Shown: positions 1 to 14,276, counted from the stretch's first letter. The stretch: DNA of 20,000 nt from an uncultured virus (IMG/VR IMGVR_UViG_3300037010_000217) (IMGVR_UViG_3300037010_000217), one strand, 5' to 3'. The notes: generated by a model not told the origin, from the sequence alone. Program-made: numbers and translations.

Positions 1-376
1 CAAATACAATAGATCCCTCTGGTAACTTATAAGCACCAATCTGTTTATTCAACAATAGGCGTGTAAATAGCAAACGAGTAGTAGCATTAGACTTACTTAA
101 CTCATCTAACATAATTACTTTAGGACGAGGATCATTGACTCCCCAGCTAGAGTTGGTAGCAAAATAAGATACACCGTCTTCTACATAAGGTAACTGTACA
201 TCAGGAACATCGTTCACTGGACAATCAATATAAATAAATTGATGATTAGATAATTCTGGAGCTTCTTGCAAGTAGTCTAAAATAGAACTCTTACCTACAC
301 CTGGTTCACCTACTACTAAGTAAGTGATATCTGTACCAGTGTTTAGGATAGCATTAGCAATTTGTTGGATGTTCAT
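1..376 (-). CDS. AAA+ ATPase, N4 gp24-like (truncated by window edge)
   Basis: Not in ORF track. Manual translation from ATG at 376: MNIQQIANAILNTGTDITYLVVGEPGVGKSSIL...KVIMLDELSK..., with Walker A GEPGVGKS and Walker B IMLDE. AAGGT RBS upstream. Middle-region position fits N4 gp24. Confidence 0.85.
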   Translation of the reverse strand, partial: MNIQQIANAILNTGTDITYLVVGEPGVGKSSILDYLQEAPELSNHQFIYIDCPVNDVPDVQLPYVEDGVSYFATNSSWGVNDPRPKVIMLDELSKSNATTRLLFTRLLLNKQIGAYKLPEGSIVF

Positions 377-427
377 GGTTCATACCTTTTTAATGATTAA
401 TTGATTTATGATTAGAAGAATTCGGTA

Positions 428-456
428 GCACCTATACAGACTTAGCTGTATAGGGC
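428..456 (-). terminator. Stem-loop downstream of the 469..822 gene (terminator or processing site)
   Basis: CCTATACAG-ACTTAG-CTGTATAGG inverted repeat in intergenic space; no clear U-tract. Confidence 0.45.
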
Positions 457-468
457 ATTAATATAAAC

Positions 469-822
469 TTATTGAAGTTCTGTAAACTTACTGTGCATTG
501 CACTCAAGAAAACATTTTTGAATTTCTTTCTAAAGCATCCACCAGGAATTGCATTTAGAGACTCTAAACGAATACCTTCAGAATCGTGCTTTTCAATTTC
601 TACAAGTATAGGAAGTTTATTGCAAACCTTACCTTCATACACAAACATAGTAGTATTGTCTTCAGTACGTACTTGCTGAATTAAGGAAAGTGTTAGACAC
701 TCATCAGAAAATGGAGTATCTGTAGTATTTGTACTATCTTTAGCAGTATTAGCAGCGTTGCTAGCTTTCTCTGTAAGTTCTTCGATAATACCTAAAATTT
801 CTAGCATTTCTTGTTTAGTCAT
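469..822 (-). CDS. Hypothetical phage protein (117 aa)
   Basis: ORF with AAGGAG RBS, co-oriented in the minus-strand operon. Confidence 0.75.
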   Translation of the reverse strand: MTKQEMLEILGIIEELTEKASNAANTAKDSTNTTDTPFSDECLTLSLIQQVRTEDNTTMFVYEGKVCNKLPILVEIEKHDSEGIRLESLNAIPGGCFRKKFKNVFLSAMHSKFTELQ

Positions 823-878
823 TTAAGACTCCTTGGTTTAATTAAAATGATTAAAATGGATCCACAGAATAGTAAATA

Positions 879-1064
879 CTATCTGTCCTGTAAATTAAGC
901 AATCTCTTCACCTCTTTGGTTACCAATGAACTGAACTTCTGCCCAGCTTGTTGGTCTCTACCATCAGAGTATGCAATCCAATACAACTGTTCTAAGATAT
1001 TAGCTCTTAGATTTTCATCAGTCATCATACGATCAATAGTCTTGATCACTTCCTGTTTATTCAT
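879..1064 (-). CDS. Hypothetical phage protein (61 aa)
   Basis: AAGGA RBS, tight operon packing. Confidence 0.7.
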   Translation of the reverse strand: MNKQEVIKTIDRMMTDENLRANILEQLYWIAYSDGRDQQAGQKFSSLVTKEVKRLLNLQDR

Positions 1065-1076
1065 GATTAGATTCCT

Positions 1077-1307
1077 TTAGATTTCGAAGCATCCATCATT
1101 TACATAATATGCATCTTCAAATTCATCATACATATGCTGACCTTTGAACACTAATAGATACCATAAATTAGTATCTCCTAAAGGAAAGTATCTCCATGCA
1201 TCTGTACCAAAGATATCTTCATGATTAGGGTGTTGACCTACAGGCATTGTAGTAGTTACTAATAGCACATCACGTGTACTCTTTGGTTTACTCACTTCAA
1301 TTTCCAT
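1077..1307 (-). CDS. Hypothetical phage protein (76 aa)
   Basis: GAGGA RBS, abuts upstream gene stop. Confidence 0.7.
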   Translation of the reverse strand: MEIEVSKPKSTRDVLLVTTTMPVGQHPNHEDIFGTDAWRYFPLGDTNLWYLLVFKGQHMYDEFEDAYYVNDGCFEI

Positions 1308-1544
1308 TTAACTGTCCTCTCTACTATTTCTAAATGAATCAATATAAGCGTATGCCTCTGCTTCAAGAGCATCGTAGTAACACTGGTCAATTAAATTTGT
1401 AATACGTGCATCACCTACATAAATATTTAGGTAATCAATTTGATACTCTTCAGGAATGTTAGTATCCATAGAAGTCTTAGCTTCCACGAATAACGTTACA
1501 CCATGAAGCACTGTCTTAAACTCAAATGTCTCAGTGGTTGTCAT
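1308..1544 (-). CDS. Hypothetical acidic phage protein (78 aa)
   Basis: GAGGT RBS, operon packing. Confidence 0.75.
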   Translation of the reverse strand: MTTTETFEFKTVLHGVTLFVEAKTSMDTNIPEEYQIDYLNIYVGDARITNLIDQCYYDALEAEAYAYIDSFRNSREDS

Positions 1545-1552
1545 AGATACCT

Positions 1553-1963
1553 CTATAATAGTTTCTTGATAGCAGCTAGTTTAGACTCTAGTTGCTTGTT
1601 ACGTTCTTGTAGCTCTTTAACCTTACTAGAAAGAGCTTGGTTAGCTTTATCACAGCTAATTAATAGATTAGCGTCATTTACTGTTCTGGTAAGCCTAGAA
1701 GGGACTATATGGACTTTAAAACTACATCTAAGACCATCTACACGTGTGAAGCAAAGTAGTTTAGTATCATTCTCTAGATTAACAAATATGTCATATACAA
1801 AGCCTGTATCAATAGCCTCAGCTACTAAAACAAATTCATATACTTCATTCGTGTCTAATCTAATTGAAGATTTAACTAAAAAGTCTGAATGATACTTACA
1901 AGGTTTACGTTTACTTGCAAGTTTTCCTAATATATCCATCCAAAACATAGTGTCTTCTGTCAT
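1553..1963 (-). CDS. Hypothetical protein with C-terminal coiled coil (136 aa)
   Basis: AAGGA RBS; heptad-like LSSKVKELQERNKQLESKLAAIKKLL. Confidence 0.75.
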   Translation of the reverse strand: MTEDTMFWMDILGKLASKRKPCKYHSDFLVKSSIRLDTNEVYEFVLVAEAIDTGFVYDIFVNLENDTKLLCFTRVDGLRCSFKVHIVPSRLTRTVNDANLLISCDKANQALSSKVKELQERNKQLESKLAAIKKLL

Positions 1964-1985
1964 GATTAAGATTCCTTATCTATAT

Positions 1986-2276
1986 TTATTTGTCTTTGGA
2001 TACTTCTACTGCTTGGATTGTTATAATGTCTGCATTACATCTTACAAAGTTACCATGTTGTTCTAATGGTTCAGATCGTGGCATAAAATTACGATCTAAG
2101 TATTTCGTATATACGTCTACAACTATACCCTGTTGACATTCCAGCCAGTTTGTTGCACCTCCATGCTGGTCTCTAAGTGCTTGTAACTCTGGTGATATTG
2201 GAGTTATAGCTTCTTGTTTTGCACAGCCTGCTAGTAATGCTAAAGCACTAACAGTAAATAGCCATTTGTATTGCAT
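1986..2276 (-). CDS. Putative lipoprotein (96 aa)
   Basis: Signal peptide with lipobox MQYKWLFTVSALALLAG-C; two further Cys in the mature part; TAATG coupling to the upstream gene. Confidence 0.8.
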   Translation of the reverse strand: MQYKWLFTVSALALLAGCAKQEAITPISPELQALRDQHGGATNWLECQQGIVVDVYTKYLDRNFMPRSEPLEQHGNFVRCNADIITIQAVEVSKDK

Positions 2277-2593
2277 TACAGTTCTCCTACGTATTCAAGC
2301 AATGGCATCCAGTATATAACGTCGTACAATTGACGATTACATACGCTAAACCATTGGCAATATTCTGCATTATAAAAAGCTACATGTTGACCTTCTTTAG
2401 CATCTATCACCAGTACATTAGTAAAGGTGGTTGGTAATTCACCATCAATATCAAACTTAGTCCATGCAGCTTGCATTGCAGCTTCTAAGGCTCTACGCAT
2501 ATCTCTAAGATTACCGCTAGGTATATCATAGTCATGGTTCAGTCCTAGATATTCACATGCTGCAACATGTACCATTTTGTCTGTTATACTCAT
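2276..2593 (-). CDS. DUF551-like phage protein (105 aa)
   Basis: W..(e)LP....VLV...V.YWMPL signature typical of DUF551. Confidence 0.7.
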   Translation of the reverse strand: MSITDKMVHVAACEYLGLNHDYDIPSGNLRDMRRALEAAMQAAWTKFDIDGELPTTFTNVLVIDAKEGQHVAFYNAEYCQWFSVCNRQLYDVIYWMPLLEYVGEL

Positions 2594-2760
2594 TTAACCA
2601 ACTCACATTTATAGGTTTTATGTCCTATATAAAAACTTCCTAGTCGCTCACAATCTTTACCTATACTAGATTCAGCTATCATCCATGTAGTAGATAATAC
2701 AAACGCTACTATTGTTACAACTGTTACGCCTATGACTAGTGACAAAAAAGAATCGTTCAT
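2590..2760 (-). CDS. Small single-TM membrane protein (56 aa)
   Basis: Below ORF-track cutoff. MNDSFLSLVIGVTVVTIVAFVLSTTWMIAESSIGKDCERLGSFYIGHKTYKCELVK; GAGGT RBS; ATGA overlap with next gene. Confidence 0.75.
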   Translation of the reverse strand: MNDSFLSLVIGVTVVTIVAFVLSTTWMIAESSIGKDCERLGSFYIGHKTYKCELVK

Positions 2761-2774
2761 ATTTTTACCTCAAA

Positions 2775-3017
2775 TTATTCTTCATTAGAGACTTTTACTG
2801 TTAAATTTGGATCTGTCACAATAATTACTTTAGTTTCAATCTTATTTATTGCATCAATACTAAAAGAGATACCAAAGAAAAATAGTGCTACAGTAACTAA
2901 GTACAAAGCACCAGATTCATCATTTGTAGAAAAGTAAGTGTATATAGCAAATATACTTAGTATGTATGCAATTACATCAGCCGAGTTAATATTTAATGTG
3001 AATTCTCGAATATTCAT
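2775..3017 (-). CDS. Small two-TM membrane protein (80 aa), holin-like topology
   Basis: Two hydrophobic segments (VIAYILSIFAIYTYF; ALYLVTVALFFFGISFSI); AAGGGA RBS. Confidence 0.7.
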   Translation of the reverse strand: MNIREFTLNINSADVIAYILSIFAIYTYFSTNDESGALYLVTVALFFFGISFSIDAINKIETKVIIVTDPNLTVKVSNEE

Positions 3018-3046
3018 TAGATTGTCCCTTATATTTATTTAGTGAT

Positions 3047-3685
3047 TCATGCTTTTTTAGATTTGTTTGTTGGTTTAGCTTTTGGTTCATTAATAGGTTT
3101 AATGCCTTTAGCTTTTACGTATGTTGGCTTATCCATGAAAGTATGTTTACCAACTTTAGCAACTGGAGTGTACTGTTTAACCCATACATGCTTCTTAGTG
3201 TCTACTTTAGACACATTAGCATAATATCTAGCACCATTAGCTAGATCAGGTAATTTACCTTTCAGCTCTAGATCAGCAATATGTAAAGCTTCTTTCCATT
3301 TATCTTCTTCAGCAATTTCAATAGCATCTTTATTTATAGTCCATGAGAATTGTTTAGGTTGATAAATTACTTCATAGTAAGTCTTAGGGAATTCAGGATC
3401 CTGTAATCTATGTCTTACTGTATTAGTAACAGCAATCATACCCTCTTTACCTTCACCTCTAGCTTCTTGATAGGCATTAAGAGCTATAGCTTCTTTCTGA
3501 TCAGGAAGAATAGGAGCTAATCTATTAGGTTTAGTTAATTGACCGACTTCTACTCCATATACTTCTGGATTAGACTCTAAGTCTTTCTGTACTTTATCAT
3601 AATGATAAAGCATTCCAAATGCAGGAGTAATTATTACTAGTAACCATACTAGATTAGTTAACTTATTTTTTAAGTAATTATTCAT
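3047..3685 (-). CDS. Cell wall hydrolase, SleB/Hydrolase_2 family, with N-terminal TM anchor
   Basis: ALNAYQEARGE (catalytic Glu), VIYQPKQFSW, GARYY and VGKHTF motifs. GAGGTG RBS favours ATG at 3685 over GTG at 3694. Confidence 0.9.
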   Translation of the reverse strand: MNNYLKNKLTNLVWLLVIITPAFGMLYHYDKVQKDLESNPEVYGVEVGQLTKPNRLAPILPDQKEAIALNAYQEARGEGKEGMIAVTNTVRHRLQDPEFPKTYYEVIYQPKQFSWTINKDAIEIAEEDKWKEALHIADLELKGKLPDLANGARYYANVSKVDTKKHVWVKQYTPVAKVGKHTFMDKPTYVKAKGIKPINEPKAKPTNKSKKA

Positions 3686-3790
3686 GAGATTCACCTCTTA
3701 TTAGGTTAAGGATACCTTATACCTAAATTAAATAATTTAAGTTATTTAGTATTTAGGCTTATAAACGAAGGGTTATATTTAGACTATCTT

Positions 3791-3817
3791 TAGATATTAT
3801 ATATATATATATATCTA
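3791..3817. repeat. (TA)n tract within an AT-rich near-palindrome
   Basis: TAGATAT-TATATATATATAT-ATATCTA; 17-nt alternating TA run at 3798-3814. Confidence 0.85.
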
Positions 3818-3886
3818 TATTATATTTAATATATAAATATAAACAGAAGAAGAGAAAAACCAGGTAAAAAGAGAAGAAGAGTCCGC

Positions 3887-3915
3887 AGTATAGTAAGCAT
3901 CCGATGACGTGTCAA
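3887..3915 (-). promoter_or_regulatory. Sigma70-type promoter
   Basis: Minus strand TTGACA (3915-3910), 17-bp spacer, TATACT (3892-3887), in the intergenic gap upstream of the hydrolase gene. Confidence 0.8.
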
Positions 3916-3970
3916 ATCAAAGTTTCTTATGAAAAGCAGACTATCTATAGCTAAGTATCTATGGTTCTAC

Positions 3971-4213
3971 CTAAAAAGGTAACTCATCTGGATCAGTTAC
4001 ATACTTACCAGCAAGCAAGTACCAGTTCTTAAACTCAACTATGTGATCATCTACAGATCCTTCACAAGTCCTAAATATTTTCTTTAAGGTTTCTTCATTA
4101 ATCACATACGTACTGTCCCATTGCATGAGTAAATGCTTAGTATTCCATCCACATGTACAGCATTGATTAACAAAAGCCTCTACATGGTAAGACATATATT
4201 TAATATCATTCAT
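3971..4213 (-). CDS. Hypothetical protein (80 aa) with CxxC-like CCTC motif
   Basis: ORF overlapping the upstream gene stop; co-oriented. Confidence 0.65.
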   Translation of the reverse strand: MNDIKYMSYHVEAFVNQCCTCGWNTKHLLMQWDSTYVINEETLKKIFRTCEGSVDDHIVEFKNWYLLAGKYVTDPDELPF

Positions 4214-4487
4214 AACCTACCATCCGTTTCCAATTACGGGCTTGTATTAGGTTATAACGCTTTCCTACAGCCTCATCTTCATTTACACTATAATCAAGAT
4301 AGTACCAAGATATAAACTCATCTACATTACCAATGAGCTTAGGATTCTTAGCAAATAGTAGTGCAATATCTTCTTCAGTTAGTGCATCTGGATTCATTGG
4401 TTTGAATGTTAAAGAGATTAATTGCTTTACAATCTCTTCACCAATACACAGATATCCGCCTAACTCTTTAGCTTCAAATGTACTCAT
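4206..4487 (-). CDS. Hypothetical protein (93 aa)
   Basis: GGAG RBS, ATGA overlap with upstream gene. Confidence 0.7.
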   Translation of the reverse strand: MSTFEAKELGGYLCIGEEIVKQLISLTFKPMNPDALTEEDIALLFAKNPKLIGNVDEFISWYYLDYSVNEDEAVGKRYNLIQARNWKRMVGYE

Positions 4488-4594
4488 TTAATCATCTCCA
4501 CAATGAGATACATACCTACAATGATACCAATTGTTAATATACTAACAGTCTTATAGTAATGATTATCAGCTAACCAATCAGTAAACTTACGCAT
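4484..4594 (-). CDS. Small membrane protein (36 aa; start revised from 4666)
   Basis: GGAG at 4604-4601 precedes ATG 4594: MRKFTDWLADNHYYKTVSILTIGIIVGMYLIVEMIK. Confidence 0.65.
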   Translation of the reverse strand: MRKFTDWLADNHYYKTVSILTIGIIVGMYLIVEMIK

Positions 4595-4694
4595 AGCACT
4601 CTCCATTAAATATATAAAACAATTCCACAACATAAAAAGAACCCGAACACAACGGCAAATATACATACTATCTATAAACTATCTAGCAGTATTT

Positions 4695-4726
4695 AAAAAA
4701 AAAGCCTACCCTATTAAGGGTAGACT
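4695..4726 (-). terminator. Rho-independent terminator
   Basis: Minus strand GTCTACCCT-TAAT-AGGGTAGGC followed by T9, just after the 4735..5124 stop. Confidence 0.9.
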
Positions 4727-4734
4727 GTTGATTA

Positions 4735-5124
4735 CTATGAGATTTGCATTTTATTTCCTAGGAAGCTTAACATTTCTACATAGTACTCAAAGAAGCACTT
4801 ATTAGGCTTGATATTACAAGCTACCATTCTATTATGGATATTAAGTGCTTCATTGTATGTACTTGAGTACCTTTCCAGATACCCTATAAGTTTGGTTAGT
4901 CTTTTTTCTGTATTTGGGTTATTTAGGTCTTTGACCCAAGTTAAGTCCAATACTACTTTAGGATTCAATCCTAATTCAGCTAAAATATTAGAGCAGAATT
5001 CTGTGACATGCACTTCATCAAATGCTCCTAGTTGATCTGCGTAGTATTGGTCATGGTCTCCTTGAATAATGTTATTGCTGATGTAATATGTTAAAGTATC
5101 TGCAGTGAAAACTTCGTATTTCAT
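4735..5124 (-). CDS. Hypothetical protein (129 aa)
   Basis: Strong AGGAGG RBS, directly downstream of the RNAP gene. Confidence 0.8.
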   Translation of the reverse strand: MKYEVFTADTLTYYISNNIIQGDHDQYYADQLGAFDEVHVTEFCSNILAELGLNPKVVLDLTWVKDLNNPNTEKRLTKLIGYLERYSSTYNEALNIHNRMVACNIKPNKCFFEYYVEMLSFLGNKMQIS

Positions 5125-5170
5125 ATAACCTCCTAGGTTATTTAGTTGATTGATTCAATATTGAAACTGT

Positions 5171-6907
5171 TTACGATAGAATGTATTTAGCAGATTGCAT
5201 CTTAACGTCAAGATCATCACATAGTTTCTCAATCTTAATATCTTCACCAGATATTTGAGATAAGATACTAGACAGGTAATCTTTTTTAGCTAAGTCGATC
5301 ATGATATCTTTAAAGATACCACGCATTTTCTTAGCATTGTTTGGGTGACACACGAATGAGTCATGGATATGAACTACTTCAAATGGACAACGTCTAATGA
5401 GTTCTCTTGCTACCATAGCATCAAAGCTATGAGTTAGATTAGCCATTAGGTGTGTATACGATCCTGAAGCACCTAATACACTTTTAGTATATTCAAAGGT
5501 TACATCATCTTCTAATGTTACCATCAAGGTTTCATTGTAAGAGTGACGTAATACTACTTCAAAGCCATCAGGCATAGTCCATCTATGCTCAGCTGTATCT
5601 TTCCATATAGAAGGAATAGCTTCTAATAGCTCACTTGGGCCAGTAAAACCTTTACTAATTGCCTTATAGAATGCCTTTAACTGATTCTCATTAAATGCTT
5701 TCTTAGGTGTAGCAACAGAGTTATACCAATGAGTCATGAAAGGCTTCTTAGCTTTATTACGATCTACAGCATCAGTTGCTGATAATTCGCTATTCATAAG
5801 ATTTACCACATATGAATACACATCTTCACGTTTACCTGTATCTATTAAATTTACTTTAGCAGCTGTGGTTTCGCATCCAGTCAGTGCAGCTAAGATCTGC
5901 AGACCAGAAGCTGTACAGTCCCACATTACAGGTAGACCAATAGGCATACCATCTAATGCATCTAAATATGCCATTACAGCCTTTGTGAATAGAATTGGTT
6001 CTGCTATATCATCTAAGTCTATGGTTACTTCACCATCCACTACAGATACTTTAGAAGCTACTAGTTCATATCCTTTAGCTAAGCGATCTGTCCAAGATAG
6101 TTTATCGTAGCCTGCTGTGTTAGCAATCCACATAACTATTTCTTCTAGACCTTCCTCAGTGCATACTTCTGCTTTAGCAAAGTTAAGTGTAGCTTTGTGG
6201 TACTCACTGGATTGTAGATTTAACTCATACCCTTTTGAATACATACGACCACGCTTGTCATACTGCCACATAAAGTAGAATTTTCTATCTCCTATATCAT
6301 CTACTACGTCCTTAACCTTCTTCTTATCATAAGAAGTTACATCTTTAAACGTATCAGTAATATAACGATCTAGTTTAAACCCTACAGACTGTAGCTTGTT
6401 TAGTACTGGTAGACAGATCTCACCATCATGGTGATTCTTACTACCTAGTAGAGCACTGTGCTTAATGGTGTAATAACCTCCGTTATTATTAGAGGTCCAG
6501 CTTTTAGGCTCTACTAATAGTGGTGGTAGAACTGTTGTCTGAGCTAGTTCTTGCTCTTGAGCATGTGGTAGAAATATATTGTTCTTAATATATAAACTAC
6601 CTTCATTAGATTGGATAATGGTATAAATACCGCTTTTAGCACCTACCATAAGGTAATCTTTCTTGATTACCTCCTCTGGTTCAACGCATAACAAACTAGC
6701 TAATCTAGCTATAAGCCCTTGAATAGGCTTATTCTTACTATTCTCTAGTACAGCTAGTAGTAAAGCTGCTGCTACTTCCTCAGTCATACCTAACTGAGTT
6801 AGTACTAATGTGTCTGTGCTATCAATTAGATCATAAATTCTAGAGGTAGCTAACCTCTTAGAGTATTTGTTCTCTAATTGGATTTGTAATTCATATAAGT
6901 TTTGCAT
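5171..6907 (-). CDS. T7-family single-subunit DNA-directed RNA polymerase, N4 RNAPII-like (gp15+gp16 equivalents in one ORF)
   Basis: DKRGRMY (DxRGR), motif A WDCTASGLQ, motif B RNKAKKPFMTHWY, W(T)MPDGF, ANLTHSFDA, motif C IHDSF; C-terminal YILS resembles the N4 gp16 end as I recall it; GAGGA RBS. Confidence 0.93.
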   Translation of the reverse strand: MQNLYELQIQLENKYSKRLATSRIYDLIDSTDTLVLTQLGMTEEVAAALLLAVLENSKNKPIQGLIARLASLLCVEPEEVIKKDYLMVGAKSGIYTIIQSNEGSLYIKNNIFLPHAQEQELAQTTVLPPLLVEPKSWTSNNNGGYYTIKHSALLGSKNHHDGEICLPVLNKLQSVGFKLDRYITDTFKDVTSYDKKKVKDVVDDIGDRKFYFMWQYDKRGRMYSKGYELNLQSSEYHKATLNFAKAEVCTEEGLEEIVMWIANTAGYDKLSWTDRLAKGYELVASKVSVVDGEVTIDLDDIAEPILFTKAVMAYLDALDGMPIGLPVMWDCTASGLQILAALTGCETTAAKVNLIDTGKREDVYSYVVNLMNSELSATDAVDRNKAKKPFMTHWYNSVATPKKAFNENQLKAFYKAISKGFTGPSELLEAIPSIWKDTAEHRWTMPDGFEVVLRHSYNETLMVTLEDDVTFEYTKSVLGASGSYTHLMANLTHSFDAMVARELIRRCPFEVVHIHDSFVCHPNNAKKMRGIFKDIMIDLAKKDYLSSILSQISGEDIKIEKLCDDLDVKMQSAKYILS

Positions 6908-6964
6908 ATCTATTCCTCGTCAGGTTGATATCAGTTACTATCTAATATAAATACTAATAAATAT

Positions 6965-6992
6965 GCCCTATACCTATTACTAGGTATAAGGC
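6965..6992 (-). terminator. Stem-loop between the early 89-aa gene and the RNAP gene
   Basis: Minus strand GCCTTATACCTA-GTAA-TAGGTATAGGGC (GNRA loop), weak U-tract. Confidence 0.65.
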
Positions 6993-6998
6993 TTAAGA

Positions 6999-7268
6999 TT
7001 ATTTCTTGAGAATATCCATGATACTTTTCTTCTCATGTACTTTTTCTTCAAGTACCTCTAAGACTAAGCTACCATCTGCGATAGCTTGAATTACATCCAT
7101 AAGTTCTACCTCATACCCTTGAAGGGTTAATTTACCCTTGTTAGTTAGATTCAAGAGTAGACCATATACACTATTTTCACCATTTGGTGTACGAACAGCG
7201 TAAGTTACACGGTTAGCGTTGTTGCTAGTATTGTTAGTTGATGCATTTGCTTTTACGATTAAAGCCAT
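6999..7268 (-). CDS. Early protein (89 aa)
   Basis: GGAG RBS; preceded by a 23-bp promoter motif copy and followed by a hairpin. Confidence 0.8.
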   Translation of the reverse strand: MALIVKANASTNNTSNNANRVTYAVRTPNGENSVYGLLLNLTNKGKLTLQGYEVELMDVIQAIADGSLVLEVLEEKVHEKKSIMDILKK

Positions 7269-7314
7269 TTGAATTCTCCAATGATTAATGATTAATTGAT
7301 GCTGATTTAAATAG

Positions 7315-7337
7315 ATTCCACAACTCAGAGACCCTAA
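7315..7337 (-). promoter_or_regulatory. Putative phage-RNAP early promoter, copy at 7315
   Basis: ATTCCACAACTCAGAGACCCTAA; repeated upstream of three consecutive early genes. Confidence 0.75.
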
Positions 7338-7391
7338 AAAATAGGTATCCCTTCCTCTTGTAATACTATCTTAGATAATTTTATTGGTTTA

Positions 7392-7421
7392 TTACTCCCT
7401 AAGCCTAAGCCTAGAGAGTAA
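7392..7421 (-). terminator. Stem-loop after the 75-aa early gene
   Basis: Minus strand TTACTCTCTAGGC-TTAG-GCTTAGGGAGTAA, 13-bp stem whose two mismatches are G-U pairs only on the minus-strand RNA; no U-tract. Confidence 0.65.
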
Positions 7422-7431
7422 GAATTTGTTG

Positions 7432-7659
7432 TTATGGTGTTTGTGTAGTTGTGTCATTACTACGCATTGCTTGCACTCCGTATGCAAGTGCTGATAATAC
7501 TGCAACACCGCCTAATGCTAAGACAGCTACGTATCCTTTAGTGCCCTCACTTACTACGTCTAGCATAGATGCAGTCATTACTGCGTCCATACTTTCCTCT
7601 ACTGATGTAGCCTGTAAGAACTTACCTGTTGTACTCTTAGCGAATTGTTTACGTGCCAT
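7432..7659 (-). CDS. Early membrane-anchored protein (75 aa)
   Basis: AAGGA RBS; C-proximal TM YVAVLALGGVAVLSALAYGV. Confidence 0.8.
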   Translation of the reverse strand: MARKQFAKSTTGKFLQATSVEESMDAVMTASMLDVVSEGTKGYVAVLALGGVAVLSALAYGVQAMRSNDTTTQTP

Positions 7660-7690
7660 GATGATATTCCTTATTCAAATATTAGATTAA

Positions 7691-7713
7691 ATTCCACAAC
7701 TCCGAGACCCTAA
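7691..7713 (-). promoter_or_regulatory. Putative phage-RNAP early promoter, copy at 7691
   Basis: ATTCCACAACTCCGAGACCCTAA, 22/23 identical to the 7315 copy. Confidence 0.75.
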
Positions 7714-7736
7714 GAGACTATTTGATAAGTGTATTT

Positions 7737-7886
7737 ATGTGTGCATTAAACATGTGTGCAAATAGATGGTATAGATTATTGTCTATGGTGTGTGCATAAG
7801 GTATAGAGTATTGATTATGTATGTGTGCTGTATTTAGGAATGAATGATAATGATGTGTGTGATAGGACTAAGGATATATTTAGGAA
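7737..7886. repeat. Dispersed short direct repeats in a C-poor non-coding tract
   Basis: TGTGTGC at 7738, 7753, 7789, 7822 (TGTGTGT at 7854); GGTATAGA at 7768 and 7800; TATTTAGGAA at 7831 and 7877. Confidence 0.7.
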
Positions 7887-7932
7887 AAATATTCTTATAA
7901 ACTATGTTAGTTTTAACAATAGTTAAAAATTT

Positions 7933-7965
7933 AAGAAAAAATAAACCTACCCAATAAAGGGTAGG
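7933..7965 (-). terminator. Rho-independent terminator after the first early gene
   Basis: CCTACCC-loop-GGGTAGG stem (7946-7965) followed on the minus strand by TTTATTTTTTCTT. Confidence 0.8.
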
Positions 7966-7972
7966 AATAAGC

Positions 7973-8170
7973 TTATTTACGTAAGCTTGCTAACAGGCTA
8001 TTAGACTGCTTAGCTTGGGTCTCTTCGAGGCCCCATTTACTCTCTTCTAACAGAGAGAGTAATGCTTTTGTATCAATGTCTTTAGGGACATTTACAAAGA
8101 TAGGAAGGTACTCGATAGTACCGTCTTGATTTACAACGTAAATTTTATGTCCAACGTATGTTGTGTTCAT
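7973..8170 (-). CDS. First early protein (65 aa; start revised from 8272)
   Basis: GAGGT RBS before ATG 8170 (MNTTYVGHKIY...); the longer ORF would run through the promoter copy and hairpins. Confidence 0.75.
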   Translation of the reverse strand: MNTTYVGHKIYVVNQDGTIEYLPIFVNVPKDIDTKALLSLLEESKWGLEETQAKQSNSLLASLRK

Positions 8171-8204
8171 AATAATAAATACCTCAATTAAGATTAAATA
8201 ATAA

Positions 8205-8227
8205 ATACCATAACTCAGAGACTGTAA
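8205..8227 (-). promoter_or_regulatory. Putative phage-RNAP early promoter, copy at 8205
   Basis: ATACCATAACTCAGAGACTGTAA, 19/23 identical to the 7315 copy. Confidence 0.7.
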
Positions 8228-8231
8228 AAGG

Positions 8232-8330
8232 TTAAGCGTGAGCTTAAGTTTGTACTTCTTTATGAAGTACAACTAGGGGGGGGTATACCCTCCTCACTGT
8301 GTATACAGTGGTAAGTAATACACTTATACC
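8232..8330. repeat. Cluster of five abutting inverted repeats at the early/late divergence point
   Basis: TTAAGC-GTGA-GCTTAA; TTGTACTTC-TTTAT-GAAGTACAA; G8-TATA-CCCTCCT; CACTGT-GTAT-ACAGTG; TAAGT-AATAC-ACTTA. Confidence 0.8.
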
Positions 8331-8395
8331 AAAATTATAAAATTCCAAAAAAGTTTTCATACCAAAAATAAAAAATTTCTAAAAACCTGAAAAAG

Positions 8396-8425
8396 TTGAC
8401 TATAACCTATCCTTAATGCTATCTT
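8396..8425 (+). promoter_or_regulatory. Sigma70-type late promoter with extended -10
   Basis: TTGACT (8396-8401), 18-bp spacer, TGc-TATCTT (8417-8425), with upstream A-tracts; N4 late genes are transcribed by host sigma70 RNAP. Confidence 0.65.
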
Positions 8426-8452
8426 ATAAACACTAGGTATAGAGGAACATTT

Positions 8453-9178
8453 ATGGAACAAGAAGTATTAGATTCGCAGGTAGTTACTCCTACTATCAGT
8501 GATGATCTACTCAAGAACAGTTTACCTAAACATCTAAGAGGGTTAGTCACTGACTCCTTGGTTTCTACTGTTAACAGTATTGCTAATACAGATGGAGTGA
8601 TGAGAGAAAGCTTTAGAGATAATCTCATTGGTTACATGCATGTATTGCAAGATGGTAAGTATAAGATTCAAGATTACATTAGTGCTGTAAGATACTGTAG
8701 CTATAGACTAATGGGTAGAGGTATTAGTGATAGTTATCGCAGTACATTCCCAGATAGATATGCTAGACTAATTCAAGAAGGTGCTAGTGCTAATCATATC
8801 AGTGGTTTTGCTAGTGCTTATAATAAGAATAAACTAGTTAACCTCATTATGGAACAGAGTTTAATACCTACTTATGTATTGAACCAAGACATCTATCAAG
8901 AAGCTATTAATGTACAAGCAGAACTAATGAGAACAGCTAATAGTGAGAAGGTTAGAAGTGATGCTGCTAACAGTTTACTGACTCATCTAAAACAACCTGA
9001 GACTCGGAAGATTGAGATTGAAATGGGTGTTAAAGAGAGTAAGAGTATTGATGAATTAAGAGAAGCTACTAGAGCATTAGCTCAAGCTCAATTAACTGCT
9101 ATTAGTACAGGTGCTATGAGTGTAATTGATGTAGCTCATAGTAAAATTATCCAAGGTACATGTGAGGAACAAGAGTGA
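8453..9178 (+). CDS. N4 gp69-like conserved protein (putative terminase small subunit)
   Basis: SEKVRSDAANSLLTHLKQPE and YISAVRYCSY segments, size and position upstream of terL match the N4-like gp69 family as recalled; GAGGA RBS. Confidence 0.75.
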   Translation: MEQEVLDSQVVTPTISDDLLKNSLPKHLRGLVTDSLVSTVNSIANTDGVMRESFRDNLIGYMHVLQDGKYKIQDYISAVRYCSYRLMGRGISDSYRSTFPDRYARLIQEGASANHISGFASAYNKNKLVNLIMEQSLIPTYVLNQDIYQEAINVQAELMRTANSEKVRSDAANSLLTHLKQPETRKIEIEMGVKESKSIDELREATRALAQAQLTAISTGAMSVIDVAHSKIIQGTCEEQE

Positions 9179-9528
9179 TGTTAAAGCATAAAGCTGTTAG
9201 TTTATTTCTAGAGAAGTTTAGAAATACTGGTGAGATTAGAGATATAGGCTCTAAGAAGAGTAAAGCTATCTTTGAGAAGATCACACTAGAGAATCTAGAA
9301 GATATTACTAAGATCATGAGATATAACGCTAATGGCTCAGTGTATATGCCTATCGTAGAAGAGATTGATTTAGAAGGTAAAATTGCTAGATGCGATATGA
9401 TACTAGTAAACTATAAGGAAGATCTTATTGGTTTGTATCTAGGTATTGGATACTTTGATGTACCAGAAGAAGGTACAATATTAATAATCAATAAAGAAAA
9501 CCTAGATCTATTGTATCCCTTGGTTTAG
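9178..9528 (+). CDS. Hypothetical protein (~116 aa)
   Basis: TGATG coupling to the upstream gene (alternative GTG start at 9175). Confidence 0.7.
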   Translation: MLKHKAVSLFLEKFRNTGEIRDIGSKKSKAIFEKITLENLEDITKIMRYNANGSVYMPIVEEIDLEGKIARCDMILVNYKEDLIGLYLGIGYFDVPEEGTILIINKENLDLLYPLV

Positions 9529-9554
9529 TTGTTAATGTTTATAGGAATGATGTG

Positions 9555-10103
9555 ATGAAGATTGATAGTACAGTGTTGAAGTTAATGCAGAAACAGATTA
9601 GCGTAGAAAATGCTAATCATTTAGTTTATATTGAATTAGCTAATTGGTGTTCATTTAATGGGTATGATAATGCCGCTGAGTTATTTACTAAACAAGCTGA
9701 AGGTGAGTTAACTCACAGAGACAGATTCAGAAGTTACTTGCTGGATCTTGGCTATATGCCTGATGCATTTACTTTGAATAAGTTTGATTATGGTGTTATT
9801 GAAAACTTAGAAGATACTGTATTTGCTGCATTAGCTTTAGAGCAGAATACTACTAAACAGATTCTAGCTATTAAAGAAGCTGCTAATGAATCTGATGACT
9901 ATGTAAGTTCAGAAGAGTCTAATTGGTTCTTGGCTGAACAGAGAGAAGAAGAAAGTCTGTTTATTGGTTTAGTAGATAAGATCAATCAAATGAAGTTATC
10001 AGATAGTTCTACTCCTGAGTGGTTCAAAGGTTCTTTACGAATTGAGTTAGATGAGTATATGGATCCTGATGATTCTGACGATTCTGAAGAGACTGATGAC
10101 TAA
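9555..10103 (+). CDS. ftn: Ferritin (FtnA-type, non-haem)
   Basis: Ferroxidase-centre pattern: QISVE..HLVY (E17/Y24), QAEGELTH (E50/H53), ALALEQ (E94), WFLAEQREEE (E126/Q127/E130), E. coli FtnA numbering; AGGA RBS; alternative GTG start at 9552. Confidence 0.88.
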   Translation: MKIDSTVLKLMQKQISVENANHLVYIELANWCSFNGYDNAAELFTKQAEGELTHRDRFRSYLLDLGYMPDAFTLNKFDYGVIENLEDTVFAALALEQNTTKQILAIKEAANESDDYVSSEESNWFLAEQREEESLFIGLVDKINQMKLSDSSTPEWFKGSLRIELDEYMDPDDSDDSEETDD

Positions 10104-11686
10104 TGAGTAAACCTATAAAGCAATCTGTAGAGCATTGGCTTAATGCTGTTGACTACGGGAATGATATTAACTATGTCCCTAGTGAGTTCTCACTAGAGTT
10201 TGTTAACTTTATTAAGTTGGTTAATGGCAATGAAGGAGAAGAGAACTTAACCCCTATTATCCATTATAAGATGTTGGATCAGATTGCTGGAGGTAAGTCT
10301 AATACACTTAATATGTTATTCCGTGGTTCAGGTAAGACTACTGTATTTGGTGAGTATATGTTTTTATATCTTGCTACTTATGGGGAATTACCTGACTTTG
10401 GTAGAATTGATCTAGCTATCTATGTAAGTGATAGTATAGAGAACGGTGTAAAAAATATGAGGAAAAACTTAGAATTTAGATGGGAGAATAGTGAGTTTTT
10501 ACAGCAATACGTCCCTGAAGCTAAGTTTACTGATATTAGGTGGGAGTTTACTAATAAAGATGGGAAGAAGCTCATCATCAAAGGGTATGGTGCATTAACT
10601 GGTGTTCGTGGTAGTAAAGAGATGGGTAAGAGACCTAACTTTGCACTACTAGATGACTTGGTTTCTGATGATGGTGCTAGAAGTCCCACAATTACAGCCA
10701 GTATTGAAGATACTGTATATAAGGCTATTGATTATGCATTACATCCTACAAGACGTAAAATTATTTGGAACGGTACTCCGTTCAATAGTAATGACCCTTT
10801 ATACAAAGCTGCTGAATCAGGTGCATGGTATGTCAACGTGTTTCCTGTGTGTAATACTTTTCCGTGCAGTCCAGAAGAGTTTAGAGGAGCGTGGGAAGAT
10901 CGATTTACATATCAGTATGTTAAAGATCAATACGATAAAGCAGTCCTTGCAGGAAAGGTAGATAGCTTCATGCAAGAGTTGATGTTAAGAATTATTAGTG
11001 ATGATGATAGGTTAGTCTTTGATCATGACTTAGTGTGGTACGATTCTAAGAGAGTTCAGCAGAATAAAGAAAGGTTTAACTTCTATATTACTACTGACTT
11101 TGCTACTAGTGAAGGTAAGGCTAGTGACTTTAGTGTTATAAGTGTATGGGCTTATAATAATAATGGTGATTGGTTACTGGTAGATGGAATTTGTGCTAGA
11201 CAGTTAATGGATAAGAACATTGATGATCTATTTAGATTAGCTCAGATGTATAGACCTCAACAGGTAGGTATTGAGGTATCTGGTCAACAAGGAGGTTTTA
11301 TCTCTTGGATCTATGATCAGATGACTACTAGAAATATCTACTTTACTCTGGCTAGTGAAAACAATAACGGTAGAGCTGGTATTAGACCCGCTACTAATAA
11401 GATGGAAAGATTCAACGTAGTACTTCCCTGGTTTAAGACTAAGAAAATTTGGTTACCAGAAGATATGCGTGATCATCCTCTAGTGTTAGAACTATTAGAA
11501 GAGTTGAGATACGCTTCACCTAAAGGTTTTAAAAGTAAGCATGATGATGCTATTGATACAGTGTCTATGTTAGCTAAACTAAGCCCCTGGAAGCCTACAG
11601 AAGAGACTGTAAATACAAAGACAGGTGATATGTTTGAAGATGAGCCTGAATTGACTGGCGGAGCTTATAGCTCGTATATTGTATAG
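10103..11686 (+). CDS. terL: Terminase large subunit, N4 gp68-like
   Basis: Walker A FRGSGKTT, Walker B ALLDD, GTP motif, nuclease TTDFA and HDDAID; 527 aa. Confidence 0.95.
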   Translation: MSKPIKQSVEHWLNAVDYGNDINYVPSEFSLEFVNFIKLVNGNEGEENLTPIIHYKMLDQIAGGKSNTLNMLFRGSGKTTVFGEYMFLYLATYGELPDFGRIDLAIYVSDSIENGVKNMRKNLEFRWENSEFLQQYVPEAKFTDIRWEFTNKDGKKLIIKGYGALTGVRGSKEMGKRPNFALLDDLVSDDGARSPTITASIEDTVYKAIDYALHPTRRKIIWNGTPFNSNDPLYKAAESGAWYVNVFPVCNTFPCSPEEFRGAWEDRFTYQYVKDQYDKAVLAGKVDSFMQELMLRIISDDDRLVFDHDLVWYDSKRVQQNKERFNFYITTDFATSEGKASDFSVISVWAYNNNGDWLLVDGICARQLMDKNIDDLFRLAQMYRPQQVGIEVSGQQGGFISWIYDQMTTRNIYFTLASENNNGRAGIRPATNKMERFNVVLPWFKTKKIWLPEDMRDHPLVLELLEELRYASPKGFKSKHDDAIDTVSMLAKLSPWKPTEETVNTKTGDMFEDEPELTGGAYSSYIV

Positions 11687-11704
11687 GTAAGGATTATATA
11701 TATT

Positions 11705-11998
11705 ATGGGTAATGTTTATTACATAAAACTTGATGCACAAAATATGGTAGTAAAAAGTATAGTGTATCCTAATACTACATCAGATGCTATTGAACACCCT
11801 CCTGCAGATATGATTGATGTAACAGAACAAATGAAAGATAAAGACCCAAAATCCTTCTCAAGGAAGATAACAAAAATTACTAGTAAGCCTAATAAAATGC
11901 TATATTTTATTAATGGAGAGTTCCATGTTATTGATAGATACTCATTTAATGATGCTATGAAATTAGAGAAGTTATTAGAAAATGATAGTGTAGATTGA
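11705..11998 (+). CDS. Hypothetical protein (97 aa)
   Basis: AAGGA RBS; N-terminus YYIKLDAQNMVVKSIV resembles small tail-fibre-associated phage proteins (weak). Confidence 0.7.
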   Translation: MGNVYYIKLDAQNMVVKSIVYPNTTSDAIEHPPADMIDVTEQMKDKDPKSFSRKITKITSKPNKMLYFINGEFHVIDRYSFNDAMKLEKLLENDSVD

Positions 11999-12010
11999 AG
12001 GTACTAAGTT

Positions 12011-12616
12011 ATGTTTAAAATTATAAAAGTACCTTCAGGAGATTCTGCTATAATCCAATCAAGTAGCTATGATTTGTATACCTATACTGTGTATGTAGGT
12101 AAGCATGAAATAGATATTCCTTTAGGTGATTCTCTATGGCTAGTTAATGATACTCAAGCTAGTGTATGTAGAGGTGGTACTAAAGTTAAAAGTGATTCTT
12201 TAGCTGTACTGCTTAGGGGTTATCAATGTGAAAGCAAGTCATCTAATTATGAAAGTATTGTTAATTTACCTTATATTAATGGTTGTAGCTCACAACAAAT
12301 ATTTCCTCCTGTAAGACCTGGTGATCCTACATTACAATTACTATACTTACCTAAAGGTACTTCAGAACAAGCTCATCATATACATTCAACTGTTAGAGTA
12401 GTTAAAGTTATTAGTGGAAGTGGTTATAGTGTTCAAGGTATGACAGATGAAGTAAAAGTACCACTAAATCCTGGTGATGTTCTAGTACTGGATAAAATGA
12501 CACCACACCATTTTGTTACTGAAGATGACTATTTACTTGTAGCACCTATACATGTTTATAGTTCTACAGCATTAGAAAAAAATCACCCAATGCGTAATGG
12601 TACGTTTGAAATTTGA
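12011..12616 (+). CDS. Cupin-domain metal-binding protein
   Basis: Cupin motif 1 QAHHIHSTVRVVKVISGSG and motif 2 LNPGDVLVLDKMTPHHF. Confidence 0.85.
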   Translation: MFKIIKVPSGDSAIIQSSSYDLYTYTVYVGKHEIDIPLGDSLWLVNDTQASVCRGGTKVKSDSLAVLLRGYQCESKSSNYESIVNLPYINGCSSQQIFPPVRPGDPTLQLLYLPKGTSEQAHHIHSTVRVVKVISGSGYSVQGMTDEVKVPLNPGDVLVLDKMTPHHFVTEDDYLLVAPIHVYSSTALEKNHPMRNGTFEI

Positions 12617-12629
12617 TAGGAGTATTCGT

Positions 12630-13520
12630 ATGTTAGGTCTTGAAAATTCACCAGATTCTAGAAGATTTTTTAAGTTTTTTGGTGTAATACCTTGTGATAG
12701 AACAGGTACTTTAGAAGGTCTAGTTAATACTGTAAACACTATCCCTACCAACGAAGATAGAATTACATATGCAAACATTACTTTTCAAGAATGTATTGAT
12801 ATGCAAATTGAAAAAATTAAAGCACATCCAATTAAAGATAAAGTACTTCTTTGGAGTGGTGGTATAGATTCTACTTTAGTATTTTATGCTTTAGTTGCTG
12901 CTGGTATTGAGTTTAGTATAGGTATGTCTGTATCATCTGTTAAAGAGTATCCGATGCTTGCTGAACAAATACAAGACGATGTTACAGCAGCACCAGAAGA
13001 TAAAAGGTTTCCTACACTCTTAGGTTACGAATTTATTAAAGAAATGCCTGAAAAATTCTTAGACAATAAACTAGTAATTACTGGTGAAATTGGAGATCAG
13101 CTGATAGGTAGTATACTGATGTTGAACTATACTGATCAACAAAGATGTATGCCTTACGATGAAGTATTAGATGTCAATGAATATGGTTTATTCGATGACG
13201 TTATAAAAACATTAGTCAATACTGATAGCCTAACATTAGGTGAATTTTTATGGGGTATGAATTTTATATTTAAGTATCAGGATGTGTTGGATAGGATTCC
13301 TAATAAACCTTTCTTTGGTATTGGTAGTGTTGCTTTTAACTTTTTTGATAGCATACCTTTTCAAGTATGGAGTATGAATAATTATAAACAAAATGCTAAT
13401 TTTAGTAAGCAAACTGATTACAAAAAAGTATATAAGCAGTACATCTACGATAATAACAATGATGAATTGTACTTAAAGTATAAGCGTAAAGTAGGATCTT
13501 TAGTGCAAATTAATAAATAA
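12630..13520 (+). CDS. Asparagine-synthetase-like ATP pyrophosphatase (synthetase domain only)
   Basis: PP-loop LLWSGGIDST and VITGEIGDQLIG (cf. AsnB SGEGxDExFGG); no N-terminal Cys glutaminase domain. AGGAG RBS favours ATG 12630 over 12597. Confidence 0.8.
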   Translation: MLGLENSPDSRRFFKFFGVIPCDRTGTLEGLVNTVNTIPTNEDRITYANITFQECIDMQIEKIKAHPIKDKVLLWSGGIDSTLVFYALVAAGIEFSIGMSVSSVKEYPMLAEQIQDDVTAAPEDKRFPTLLGYEFIKEMPEKFLDNKLVITGEIGDQLIGSILMLNYTDQQRCMPYDEVLDVNEYGLFDDVIKTLVNTDSLTLGEFLWGMNFIFKYQDVLDRIPNKPFFGIGSVAFNFFDSIPFQVWSMNNYKQNANFSKQTDYKKVYKQYIYDNNNDELYLKYKRKVGSLVQINK

Positions 13521-13535
13521 TGTAAGTAACATGTA

Positions 13536-13546
13536 TGTGATATAAT
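13536..13546 (+). promoter_or_regulatory. Extended -10 sigma70 promoter
   Basis: TGTGaTATAAT, a consensus TRTGn extended -10, in the 13521-13619 gap. Confidence 0.7.
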
Positions 13547-13619
13547 TTGAATATCTGTTTAGAGATACGTCTGAATTAGTTGGTGTAGCTTATAGTTAAT
13601 ATAAAGTGTGGGAATTGTG

Positions 13620-14276
13620 ATGAAAGTAACTGATATTATCGATTATGCTGTAACAGGTGAGCTTAGACAGATATCCCTTTGTGAGATTGGTGATACATCT
13701 GCCAGAACTCCTGAACAGCAGAAGAATTTAAATACTTTAGTGTCTTATGTCAATCAAGCTATGATTGAATTGAGTACTAGGTTTCCTTTGTTTATCTCTG
13801 TAGAAGAATTAGATGCTGATCCAGGCGATACAGATCCTATCCCATTCCCTGATAATGCTACCACTCTACTTAAGGTTGAGAGTTTACTTGGTGAAGTAAT
13901 TCCAATTAATGAACCTAAGTGGGATGATCCAATGTATAAAGATACAGATCAGTGGTTTATTAAGACCCCTTCTGTTAATACACTAGTCATTGATAATAAT
14001 AAACCAGTCAAATCTACTACATTACTAGCTACATTTGTATTGAGTGCTCCTAAGTACGTCTATACTAGTGATATTGCTGTACCTAATAACTATTTAGAAG
14101 CAATCTTAGATTACGTAGCTTATAAGGCTAATACAGCTATGAAACCTTTACCTAATCAAGAAGGTAATGTTTACTACATGAAGTTTGAAGCTGACTGTGC
14201 TAGATTGAAATCTACTTTTGATAATAACTATGAAAGTGTTGAAGGTAGTAAATTCTTTAATAGAGGTTTTAGGTAA
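13620..14276 (+). CDS. N4 gp67-like virion (neck/adaptor) protein
   Basis: GEL near N-terminus, YVNQAMIELSTRF, YLEAILDYVAYK, YYMKFEADC, C-terminal KFFNRGF; position after terL. ATG 13620 preferred over GTG 13608. Confidence 0.75.
   Translation: MKVTDIIDYAVTGELRQISLCEIGDTSARTPEQQKNLNTLVSYVNQAMIELSTRFPLFISVEELDADPGDTDPIPFPDNATTLLKVESLLGEVIPINEPKWDDPMYKDTDQWFIKTPSVNTLVIDNNKPVKSTTLLATFVLSAPKYVYTSDIAVPNNYLEAILDYVAYKANTAMKPLPNQEGNVYYMKFEADCARLKSTFDNNYESVEGSKFFNRGFR

Follow-up and report, generated by a model that had tools for sequence, protein, structure and literature searches.

The virion RNA polymerase (vRNAP) of phage N4 is the textbook case of a polymerase that reads DNA structure, a hairpin extruded by supercoiling, and not duplex sequence. 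According to the cited part of the source, this enzyme recognizes -11A/G, -10G, -8G and +1C on a hairpin that is extruded by gyrase-driven supercoiling and kept by the single-stranded DNA-binding protein SSB, and its promoters are reported only at the genome's left end (PMC4496689). Most early promoters of LUZ7, mapped by ONT-cappable-seq, have a stem of at least 4 bp that closes a loop of 3 nt, and transcription starts at a G located 13-14 nt downstream (PMC9163698); three hairpin promoters have been predicted in LUZ7, LIT1 and PEV2 (PMC3715699). For the roseophages RPP1 and RLP1, the part of the report cited here states that no promoter consensus could be found (PMC4193335). As far as the cited parts of these reports extend, the N4-like early promoters that were found in print, mapped or predicted, are hairpins (PMC3715699, PMC4496689, PMC9163698), and a literature search of the main texts did not find intergenic hairpin-less early promoters in Schitoviridae. 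Here we describe a 23-bp motif that is present in three copies in a 20,000-nt stretch of DNA from the uncultured virus IMGVR_UViG_3300037010_000217 (the window; all motif counts refer to it), placed as early promoters of an N4-like phage are, but essentially devoid of a hairpin.

Three copies of a 23-bp motif in the early region

A pattern scan of the whole window with the motif ATWCCAYAACTCMGAGACYSTAA yields exact matches on the plus strand at 7315-7337, 7691-7713 and 8205-8227. A tolerance of three mismatches leaves the number of matches at three, and a match appears in none of 200 dinucleotide-preserving shuffles. A repeat search widens the motif family from 23 to 33 nt; among the three copies, no conservation is seen outside these 23-33 nt. 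The open reading frames (ORFs) are on the minus strand throughout 1-8272 and on the plus strand from 8453 on, so that the motif sits on the template strand of leftward genes; in the direction of these genes, it reads TTAGGGTCTCTGAGTTGTGGAAT. The three copies are packed within 913 bp, beside the poly-C junction described below and upstream of the gene for RNA polymerase (RNAP) II, here RNAPII. The earliest in transcription order is copy 3 (8205..8227, minus strand, reading TTACAGTCTCTGAGTTATGGTAT, predicted +1 at 8209), followed by copy 2 (7691..7713, minus strand, reading TTAGGGTCTCGGAGTTGTGGAAT, predicted +1 at 7695) and by copy 1, the last ahead of the RNAP gene (7315..7337, minus strand, with the reading given above and a predicted +1 at 7319).

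Each copy belongs to a minus-strand unit composed of the motif, a leader of 36-51 nt, a small ORF and a strong stem-loop. The distance from the end of the motif to the ATG is 46 nt for copy 1 (ATG at 7268), 31 nt for copy 2 (ATG at 7659) and 34 nt for copy 3 (ATG at 8170). Folded as RNA, the stem-loops behind the small genes have energies of -13.8 to -19.1 kcal/mol (z -4.3 to -6.0), and three of them received a terminator-like score. Thus, a preliminary description of this DNA, which placed the motif at 7315, 7691 and 8205, 30-50 bp upstream of small early genes each with its own downstream stem-loop, is accurate on all these counts, and the partial copy that it reported at 4622 is real as well. 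This degenerate fourth copy (4622..4644, minus strand) is identical from -5 to +5, with GTTGTGGAAT at 4631-4622 (minus strand), and matches poorly in its upstream part: in an ungapped comparison with copy 1, 3 of the 13 remaining positions upstream of the 10-mer match, and 8 of 18 over the whole upstream part. It lies directly after a terminator (4726-4703) and 32 nt ahead of a likely ATG at 4594, and is probably a weak early promoter.

The copies do not form a hairpin

When the copies are set in the N4 register (CC, a 4-nt spacer, a 5-nt arm and an AGA loop), copies 1 and 2 pair 1 bp (-9:-13) and copy 3 pairs 3 bp. Folded as single-stranded DNA, neither strand of any of the three copies does better than shuffles: the energies range from 0 to -1.6 kcal/mol, and z is about -1.2 or higher. 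Register pairing and DNA folds agree with the initial observation that there is essentially no hairpin, with 3 bp in the 8205 copy and 1 bp in the other two. None of the window copies has an inverted repeat that would form a template-strand hairpin near -11 with a stem of at least 4 bp and a loop of 3-4 nt. A search of the 66 nt upstream of each copy for an alternative stable hairpin, a check suggested at the outset, finds none common to all copies; only copy 3 has two (8232-8247 and 8250-8272). With +1 assumed at CC, more precisely at the C adjoining ACAA on the template strand, the earlier count that puts a G at -11 is correct for all three copies, and positions -10 and -8 are both A.

A fused N4-type RNAPII

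The early strand encodes a 578-aa single-subunit RNAP of the fused (unsplit) N4 RNAPII type (5171..6907, minus strand). This ORF matches the PHROG RNAP families phrog_2051/2166, including "N4-like RNA polymerase", and Pfam PF00940, and a tblastn search shows that it covers two adjacent RNAPII genes of many Schitoviridae, with 30-34% identity. The AlphaFold model of the protein (pLDDT 88.4) identifies T7 and mitochondrial RNAPs as structural matches, with E values of 1e-20 to 1e-21 for T7 RNAP promoter and elongation complexes; the best low-rmsd (root-mean-square deviation) match is the large subunit of N4 RNAPII, 6dt7_B, with 28% identity and an rmsd of 3.7. Given this match, the 578-aa enzyme is an unsplit RNAPII, as first proposed, a single ORF spanning both RNAPII genes. 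The opposite, plus strand carries a TerS-like gene, TerL, an SU10-type adaptor and tail genes. Together with the matches to the fused RNAPII family, this gene complement makes the window part of a divergent N4-like (Schitoviridae) phage, in line with the preliminary reading. No close relatives were found among GenBank phages; the RNAP as a single query in IMG/VR had no match, and neither did an alignment query against genome contigs.

The RNAPII gene, which sits behind the third unit, lacks its own promoter; no copy of the motif lies between this gene and the terminator upstream of it. In a related locus, L003, the RNAPII gene is likewise located within the operon of the third motif copy. Because of this arrangement, a polymerase that is present before RNAPII synthesis is needed.

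Relatives with and without hairpin promoters

A search that used an alignment of fused-RNAPII proteins as the query retrieved 55 metagenome loci and 21 IMG/VR loci, of which 26 have enough sequence upstream of the RNAP gene for a repeat search. Ten of these (eight distinct phages: L060, L076, L013, L019, L011, L007, L010 and L015) contain an inverted repeat in more than one copy, each with a GG 3-6 nt behind it; this is the outgroup in what follows. Twelve have no repeat family at the threshold used, many of them with little upstream DNA, and two, L066 and L067, are ambiguous. All 18 outgroup copies fold on the template strand, with energies of -2.6 to -7.4 kcal/mol; the stem has 4-7 bp and the loop 3-4 nt, and the fold begins at a distance of 3-6 nt from the 5' CC. 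The hairpin of L060 has exact N4 geometry (a 5-bp stem, a GAA loop and a 4-nt spacer). One such hairpin each was found by inspection in L012 and L069, and the hairpin word of contig G003 has two occurrences, both in the early region.

Two loci resemble the window. L003, whose RNAPII is 47% identical to that of the window, carries a 23-25-nt motif three times ahead of its first small genes, and L059, on the IMG/VR contig G001, carries a T-rich motif three times, ending in TTGG; in both, the repeats lack an inverted repeat. Of the nine copies that the window, L003 and L059 have together, not one forms a fold at the N4 position, the energies being 0 to -1.5 kcal/mol. The RNAPII sequences of the window, L003 and L058/L059 are mutually 45-52% identical and 34-41% identical to those of the hairpin group, within which identity is 43-92%; by this identity matrix, the hairpin-less phages appear as deep but related lineages. 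A GG start followed by A/T-rich sequence is common to the outgroup and the window clade.

The core pattern of the window motif is absent from the 76 relative loci. Scans of IMG/VR with the window motif gave two single matches in GC-rich coding DNA, which are taken as chance, and with the L003 motif at least 105 single matches, all likewise taken as chance, and no multi-copy locus. A scan with the junction sequence described below returned only G001 again and a near-identical 4.5-kb contig.

Position of the motif and the poly-C element

On the early strand, 35-70 nt ahead of the first early promoter, there is a single element per phage of the form GGTA(N0-2)C7+. L011, L012, L015/L073, L060-L065, L069, L059 and the window all have it; in the window it is GGTATACCCCCCCC (8276..8289, minus strand, read from 8289 to 8276) and marks where the early region begins. 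In the relatives it is located at 6729-6740 (L060), 4266-4276 (L011), 7748-7758 (L012), 8397-8407 (L015), 7934-7946 (L069) and 8061-8073 (L059).

With this element as the anchor, the gene orders can be superimposed. In L060 the order is poly-C, hairpin, leader, a 76-aa gene, terminator, a CA-rich tract, hairpin and the next gene; in the window it is poly-C, copy 3, the 65-aa gene, terminator, the CA-rich tract (7714-7945), copy 2, the 75-aa gene, stem-loop, copy 1, the 89-aa gene, terminator and RNAPII. The window 23-mer thus occupies the slots of the relatives' hairpin promoters, at the first-transcribed end and upstream of the RNAPII gene. Because the hairpin slots are filled and the GG start context is the same, the copies are called promoters here, and the vRNAP, as the polymerase that has to act first, is preferred as their reader; the promoter role is well supported by position.

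The same stretch bears on another explanation, in which the motif is a conserved leader or RNA-level element (for processing, stability or anti-termination) and transcription starts further upstream. Two hairpins and the poly-C element precede copy 3, and the 230-nt ORF-less tract before copy 2 could hide a start site. However, copy 1 lies only about 55 nt past the preceding stem-loop with no other shared element between, nothing is conserved among the copies beyond 23-33 nt, the motif does not fold, and the hairpin upstream of the poly-C element has -5.0 kcal/mol in the window and -0.8 (z +0.25) in G001. We consider this explanation improbable.

Several side observations concern the poly-C junction. 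The element (C7-9 in the phages listed) is kept among fused-RNAPII schitoviruses whose RNAPII sequences are only 34-52% alike, and may represent the physical left end, the border of a terminal repeat, or an injection or packaging signal. Terminator-like hairpins lie between it and the first promoter, with no upstream gene to terminate, both in the window (8232-8272, minus strand) and in L059 (8085-8110); in the window these are the two hairpins, of 6 bp and 9 bp, that are absent at copies 1 and 2. The hairpin just upstream of the poly-C element was considered as a single N4-type promoter and rejected, given the energies stated above for the window and G001 and its absence in L060.

The nearest complete relative and mosaicism

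The nearest complete relative is the IMG/VR contig G001 (73,858 nt, locus L059), which is rated 100% complete. It shows 84-90% nucleotide identity to the window over 1-4600 and 8276-13548, the replication and terminase parts, with TerS 95% and TerL 97% alike. The early module in between (4600-8275) diverges: the RNAPII proteins are 49% identical at the amino acid level and the small genes are unrelated. Beyond 13548, the window is unrelated to G001, with the adaptor 28% identical and no match for the tail proteins. A 3302-aa ORF of G001 matches phrog_2206, "virion RNA polymerase", with E values of 1e-193 in the C-terminal half and 6e-27 in the N-terminal half. Alignment of this protein to the N4 mini-vRNAP is limited to motifs A, B and C (25% identity) and does not reach the -11 recognition residues K114, R119 and W129. 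The equivalent motif of G001 has only three occurrences in the genome, all in the first 1.3 kb of the early region, and no repeated motif is seen ahead of its middle genes.

The mosaicism between the window and G001 is sharp, and a 129-aa gene is found on opposite sides of the RNAP in the two. At the junction (around 8385-8436), they share about 52 identical nt, and contigs from other samples break at 8348, 8356 and 8386, which suggests that the junction is a recombination hot spot. In contigs of four DNA runs over 4400-8600, depth peaks at 7220-7360 and above 8348, the stretches shared with other strains. One DNA run contains 98% of the window.

Which polymerase reads the motif

We infer the start sites and the reading polymerase as follows. 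An injected vRNAP would read the three 23-bp motifs as early promoters, and the GG of GGAAT/GGTAT, with CC as its template, would be the initiation site (8209, 7695 and 7319). From each promoter, a short unit made up of leader, small ORF and stem-loop would be transcribed, and the fused RNAPII gene would be reached by polymerases that read through the last stem-loop. Since the promoter has no inverted repeat, recognition would be by linear sequence, in the duplex or on a template strand melted in the AT-rich setting, and not by a cruciform-extruded hairpin. The motifs would then be early promoters of the virion RNAP that lost the hairpin, a reading to which we assign a probability of about one half. 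The left-end-only pattern of the equivalent motif in G001, as with N4 vRNAP promoters, supports it.

The preliminary description had left two options, hairpin-independent recognition by a virion RNAP or duplex recognition by the unsplit RNAP. Its premises, the missing hairpin and the unsplit RNAPII, are upheld; the choice between the two stands, with the vRNAP favored on position. The second option, the main rival, holds that the fused 578-aa RNAPII, encoded in the same module, reads the motifs as duplex promoters in the style of T7, with another polymerase providing the first RNAPII mRNA and a positive loop then acting on the early units and on the RNAPII gene itself. The motif has a conserved length of 23 bp and an approximately 18+5 layout. 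The comparison with T7/SP6 promoters made earlier on the basis of this layout is an analogy, which gains some weight from an ungapped alignment of the window and L003 copies over 23 positions (six copies from two phages): TTAGG (-18 to -14) and TG.G.T.TG..AT (-8 to +5) are largely kept, whereas the block from -13 to -9 differs. T7-group promoters, whose specificity block lies near -8 to -12, diverge in a similar way, and TTAGG may resemble SP6/K11 promoters. Judged from this alignment, the motif looks like a sequence-read promoter with a specificity block, whichever enzyme reads it. Motif type and RNAPII also co-vary in a swapped module between replication and terminase genes that are 84-97% alike, and the RNAPII model contains a long beta-hairpin (456-478), after the PDGF segment, that might correspond in placement to the specificity loop of T7 RNAP.

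However, this scheme has a chicken-and-egg problem, the RNAPII gene being behind the motif units with no other promoter. There are only three to four copies, all at the extreme left end and none before replication genes, and in the outgroup phages, which encode the same type of fused enzyme, hairpins fill these slots. The fused enzyme is about 300 residues shorter than T7 RNAP, which has 883 aa. Moreover, in the cited parts of the sources, N4 RNAPII depends on gp1/gp2 and on single-stranded DNA, and the promoters that RNAPII uses in LUZ7 are hairpins (PMC4496689, PMC9163698). On balance, reading of the motif by RNAPII appears unlikely.

Several observations weigh against reading of the motif by the vRNAP. 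The hairpin outgroup is selected: the folded set consists of eight distinct loci (10 of 26 with duplicates) that have an evident repeated inverted repeat, and the folds of its copies are matched by 0-80 of 200 shuffles, so that several are no better than shuffles. In G001, larger hairpins lie 10-11 nt upstream of GG at copies a and c, with -4.2 and -4.4 kcal/mol (z about -1.3), but not at copy b; the label "hairpin-less" is less clean for this phage. The N4 vRNAP contacts -10G and -8G, and the window has A at both positions. The +1 sites (7319, 7695 and 8209) are predicted from sequence, and no RNA run is among the sequencing runs listed as containing the stretch. A vRNAP gene of the window phage would lie outside the window, and the predicted vRNAP is that of G001, whose virion module is unrelated to that of the window. 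Finally, motif type and RNAPII change together in the swapped module (4600-8275), with flanks 84-97% alike, a pattern that reading by RNAPII would explain as well. Since the window and G001 differ in their virion modules too, this co-variation is compatible with a co-inherited vRNAP.

Host-type signals

A further possibility is that host RNAP with an unusual or alternative sigma factor reads the motifs, or that the motifs are operator sites, bound by a regulator, beside weak AT-rich host promoters. Each copy is followed downstream by AT-rich sequence with -10-like hexamers, and canonical sigma-70-like sites exist elsewhere, at 3915-3887 (minus strand), 8396-8425 (plus strand) and 11651-11680 (plus strand). 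However, a scan of 4400-9300 for sigma-70-like sites found 12, none of which overlaps a motif copy, and the region is poorer in such sites than shuffles, which average 21.5; none of the copies combines -35 and -10 hexamers at a spacing of 16-18 bp. The hexamers at the -35 position of the copies (TTAGGG and TTACAG) match TTGACA in two of six positions, and the motif is wholly different between phages in which the late host-type promoter region is identical over about 50 nt. We consider this possibility, in either form, very improbable.

Outside the motif copies, a near-consensus sigma-70 site, TTGACA-17-TATACT (11/12; 3887-3915, minus strand), is located in the 276-nt gap before a cell-wall hydrolase gene (3047-3694) and is kept in G001, which suggests that host RNAP may read part of the "middle" strand. 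A repeat, G(T/G)AGCT(T/C)ATAG, an imperfect AGCT-YAT-AGCT palindrome, occurs ahead of late genes at 9131-9141, 11660-11670, 13585-13595 and 14115-14125 (plus strand); the second of these lies inside the spacer of a sigma-70-like site, TTGACT-18-TATATT (11651-11680). The word alone is within chance (18 of 200 shuffles), and a 60-nt pair (11628-11687 and 13553-13612) is 70% alike. The element may be a late-promoter or activator site.

Other features of the early region

The three small early genes are located at 7973..8170 (65 aa), 7432..7659 (75 aa) and 6999..7268 (89 aa), all on the minus strand. The first two have no family match, and the 75-aa protein has a hydrophobic C-terminal part. The 65-aa ORF is followed by an intrinsic-terminator-like stem-loop (7946..7965, minus strand), the 75-aa ORF by a 13-bp stem-loop with no clear T run (7392..7421, minus strand; -18.8 kcal/mol as RNA), and the 89-aa ORF by a terminator-like stem-loop directly before the RNAP gene (6965..6992, minus strand). 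The 89-aa protein shows weak likeness (24-25% identity), with a similar pattern, to the first early proteins of L003 (320-565) and L059 (9397-9723), which, like it, are encoded just upstream of RNAPII; proteins of this type have no Pfam, PHROG or PDB sequence match. They may form a conserved early cofactor family.

The CA-rich tract between the first terminator and copy 2 (7714..7945, minus strand) has no ORF, and the same slot is CA/ACAC-rich in L059 (8420-8690) and L060 (7110-7165); a small RNA, a spacer and an array of protein-binding sites are candidate roles for this tract. On the plus strand, the window contains, between its packaging genes and its virion genes, a ferritin-like gene (PF00210; 9552-10103), a cupin gene (12011-12616) and a gene weakly similar to QueC (12597-13520), an unusual cargo for this location.

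Implications and comparison with known systems

The findings can be extended, more tentatively and at somewhat less than even odds, to a deep subclade of Schitoviridae (the window, L003 and L058/L059) in which the injected giant RNAP reads linear 23-bp promoters without a hairpin. If this is true, the hairpin/cruciform mechanism, taken as a family hallmark, would not be universal, and a vRNAP would be able to work in a T7-like, sequence-reading manner with a swappable specificity block at -13 to -9. Among single-subunit RNAPs, such phages would offer a living intermediate state, between the recognition of duplex promoters and that of hairpins. A clade without the stem, in which genome plan, start context and -11 purine are all retained, would show how promoter recognition by these enzymes can move between structure and sequence. 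This would also question the role of gyrase and SSB in early-promoter opening and in pulling in the genome, and uncultured phages sampled from mats, sediments and vents would become a source of short, orthogonal pairs of promoter and polymerase.

Among known systems, the T7/SP6 duplex promoters (23 bp, -17 to +6 in the cited part of PMC4496689) appear to resemble the motif in length, the predicted G start, the conserved upstream block and the block near -9 to -13 that varies between related phages. Unlike them, the window copies have no TATA-like consensus at -4 to -1, and the candidate enzymes are a giant vRNAP or the 578-aa RNAPII, not a T7-type enzyme of 880 aa. The likeness to LUZ7 lies in the G start and in the early units at the left end, and LUZ7 also has a few hairpin-less early starts; these, however, are a minority located inside genes preceded by a hairpin promoter in the cited part of the report, whereas the window copies are all intergenic and none has a hairpin (PMC9163698).

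The motif also resembles the N4 promoters P1-P3, which are read by the virion RNAP gp50. As described in the cited part of PMC4496689, N4 has some three copies near the end injected first, ahead of its RNAPII genes; the conserved span is about -17 to +1; and the short units are closed by stem-loops. With +1 assumed at CC, the window would also share with N4 the template CC at +1/+2, the spacer of 4 nt and the purine at -11. By the same source, N4 has a stem of 5-7 bp, where the window copies pair 3 bp (copy 3) or 1 bp (copies 1 and 2) in register; the window copies also have A, not G, at -8 and -10 and no GC-rich heptamer (PMC4496689); lacking this heptamer, the window cannot use supercoil-driven cruciform extrusion as the opening step.

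The eight hairpin relatives listed above can be compared as well. Unlike these phages, with their stems of 4-7 bp and loops of 3-4 nt, the window, L003 and L059 have copies that are unfolded, but the window shares with them the fused RNAPII family (34-41% identity), the poly-C element, the slots before the small early genes, and a GG start followed by A/T-rich sequence.

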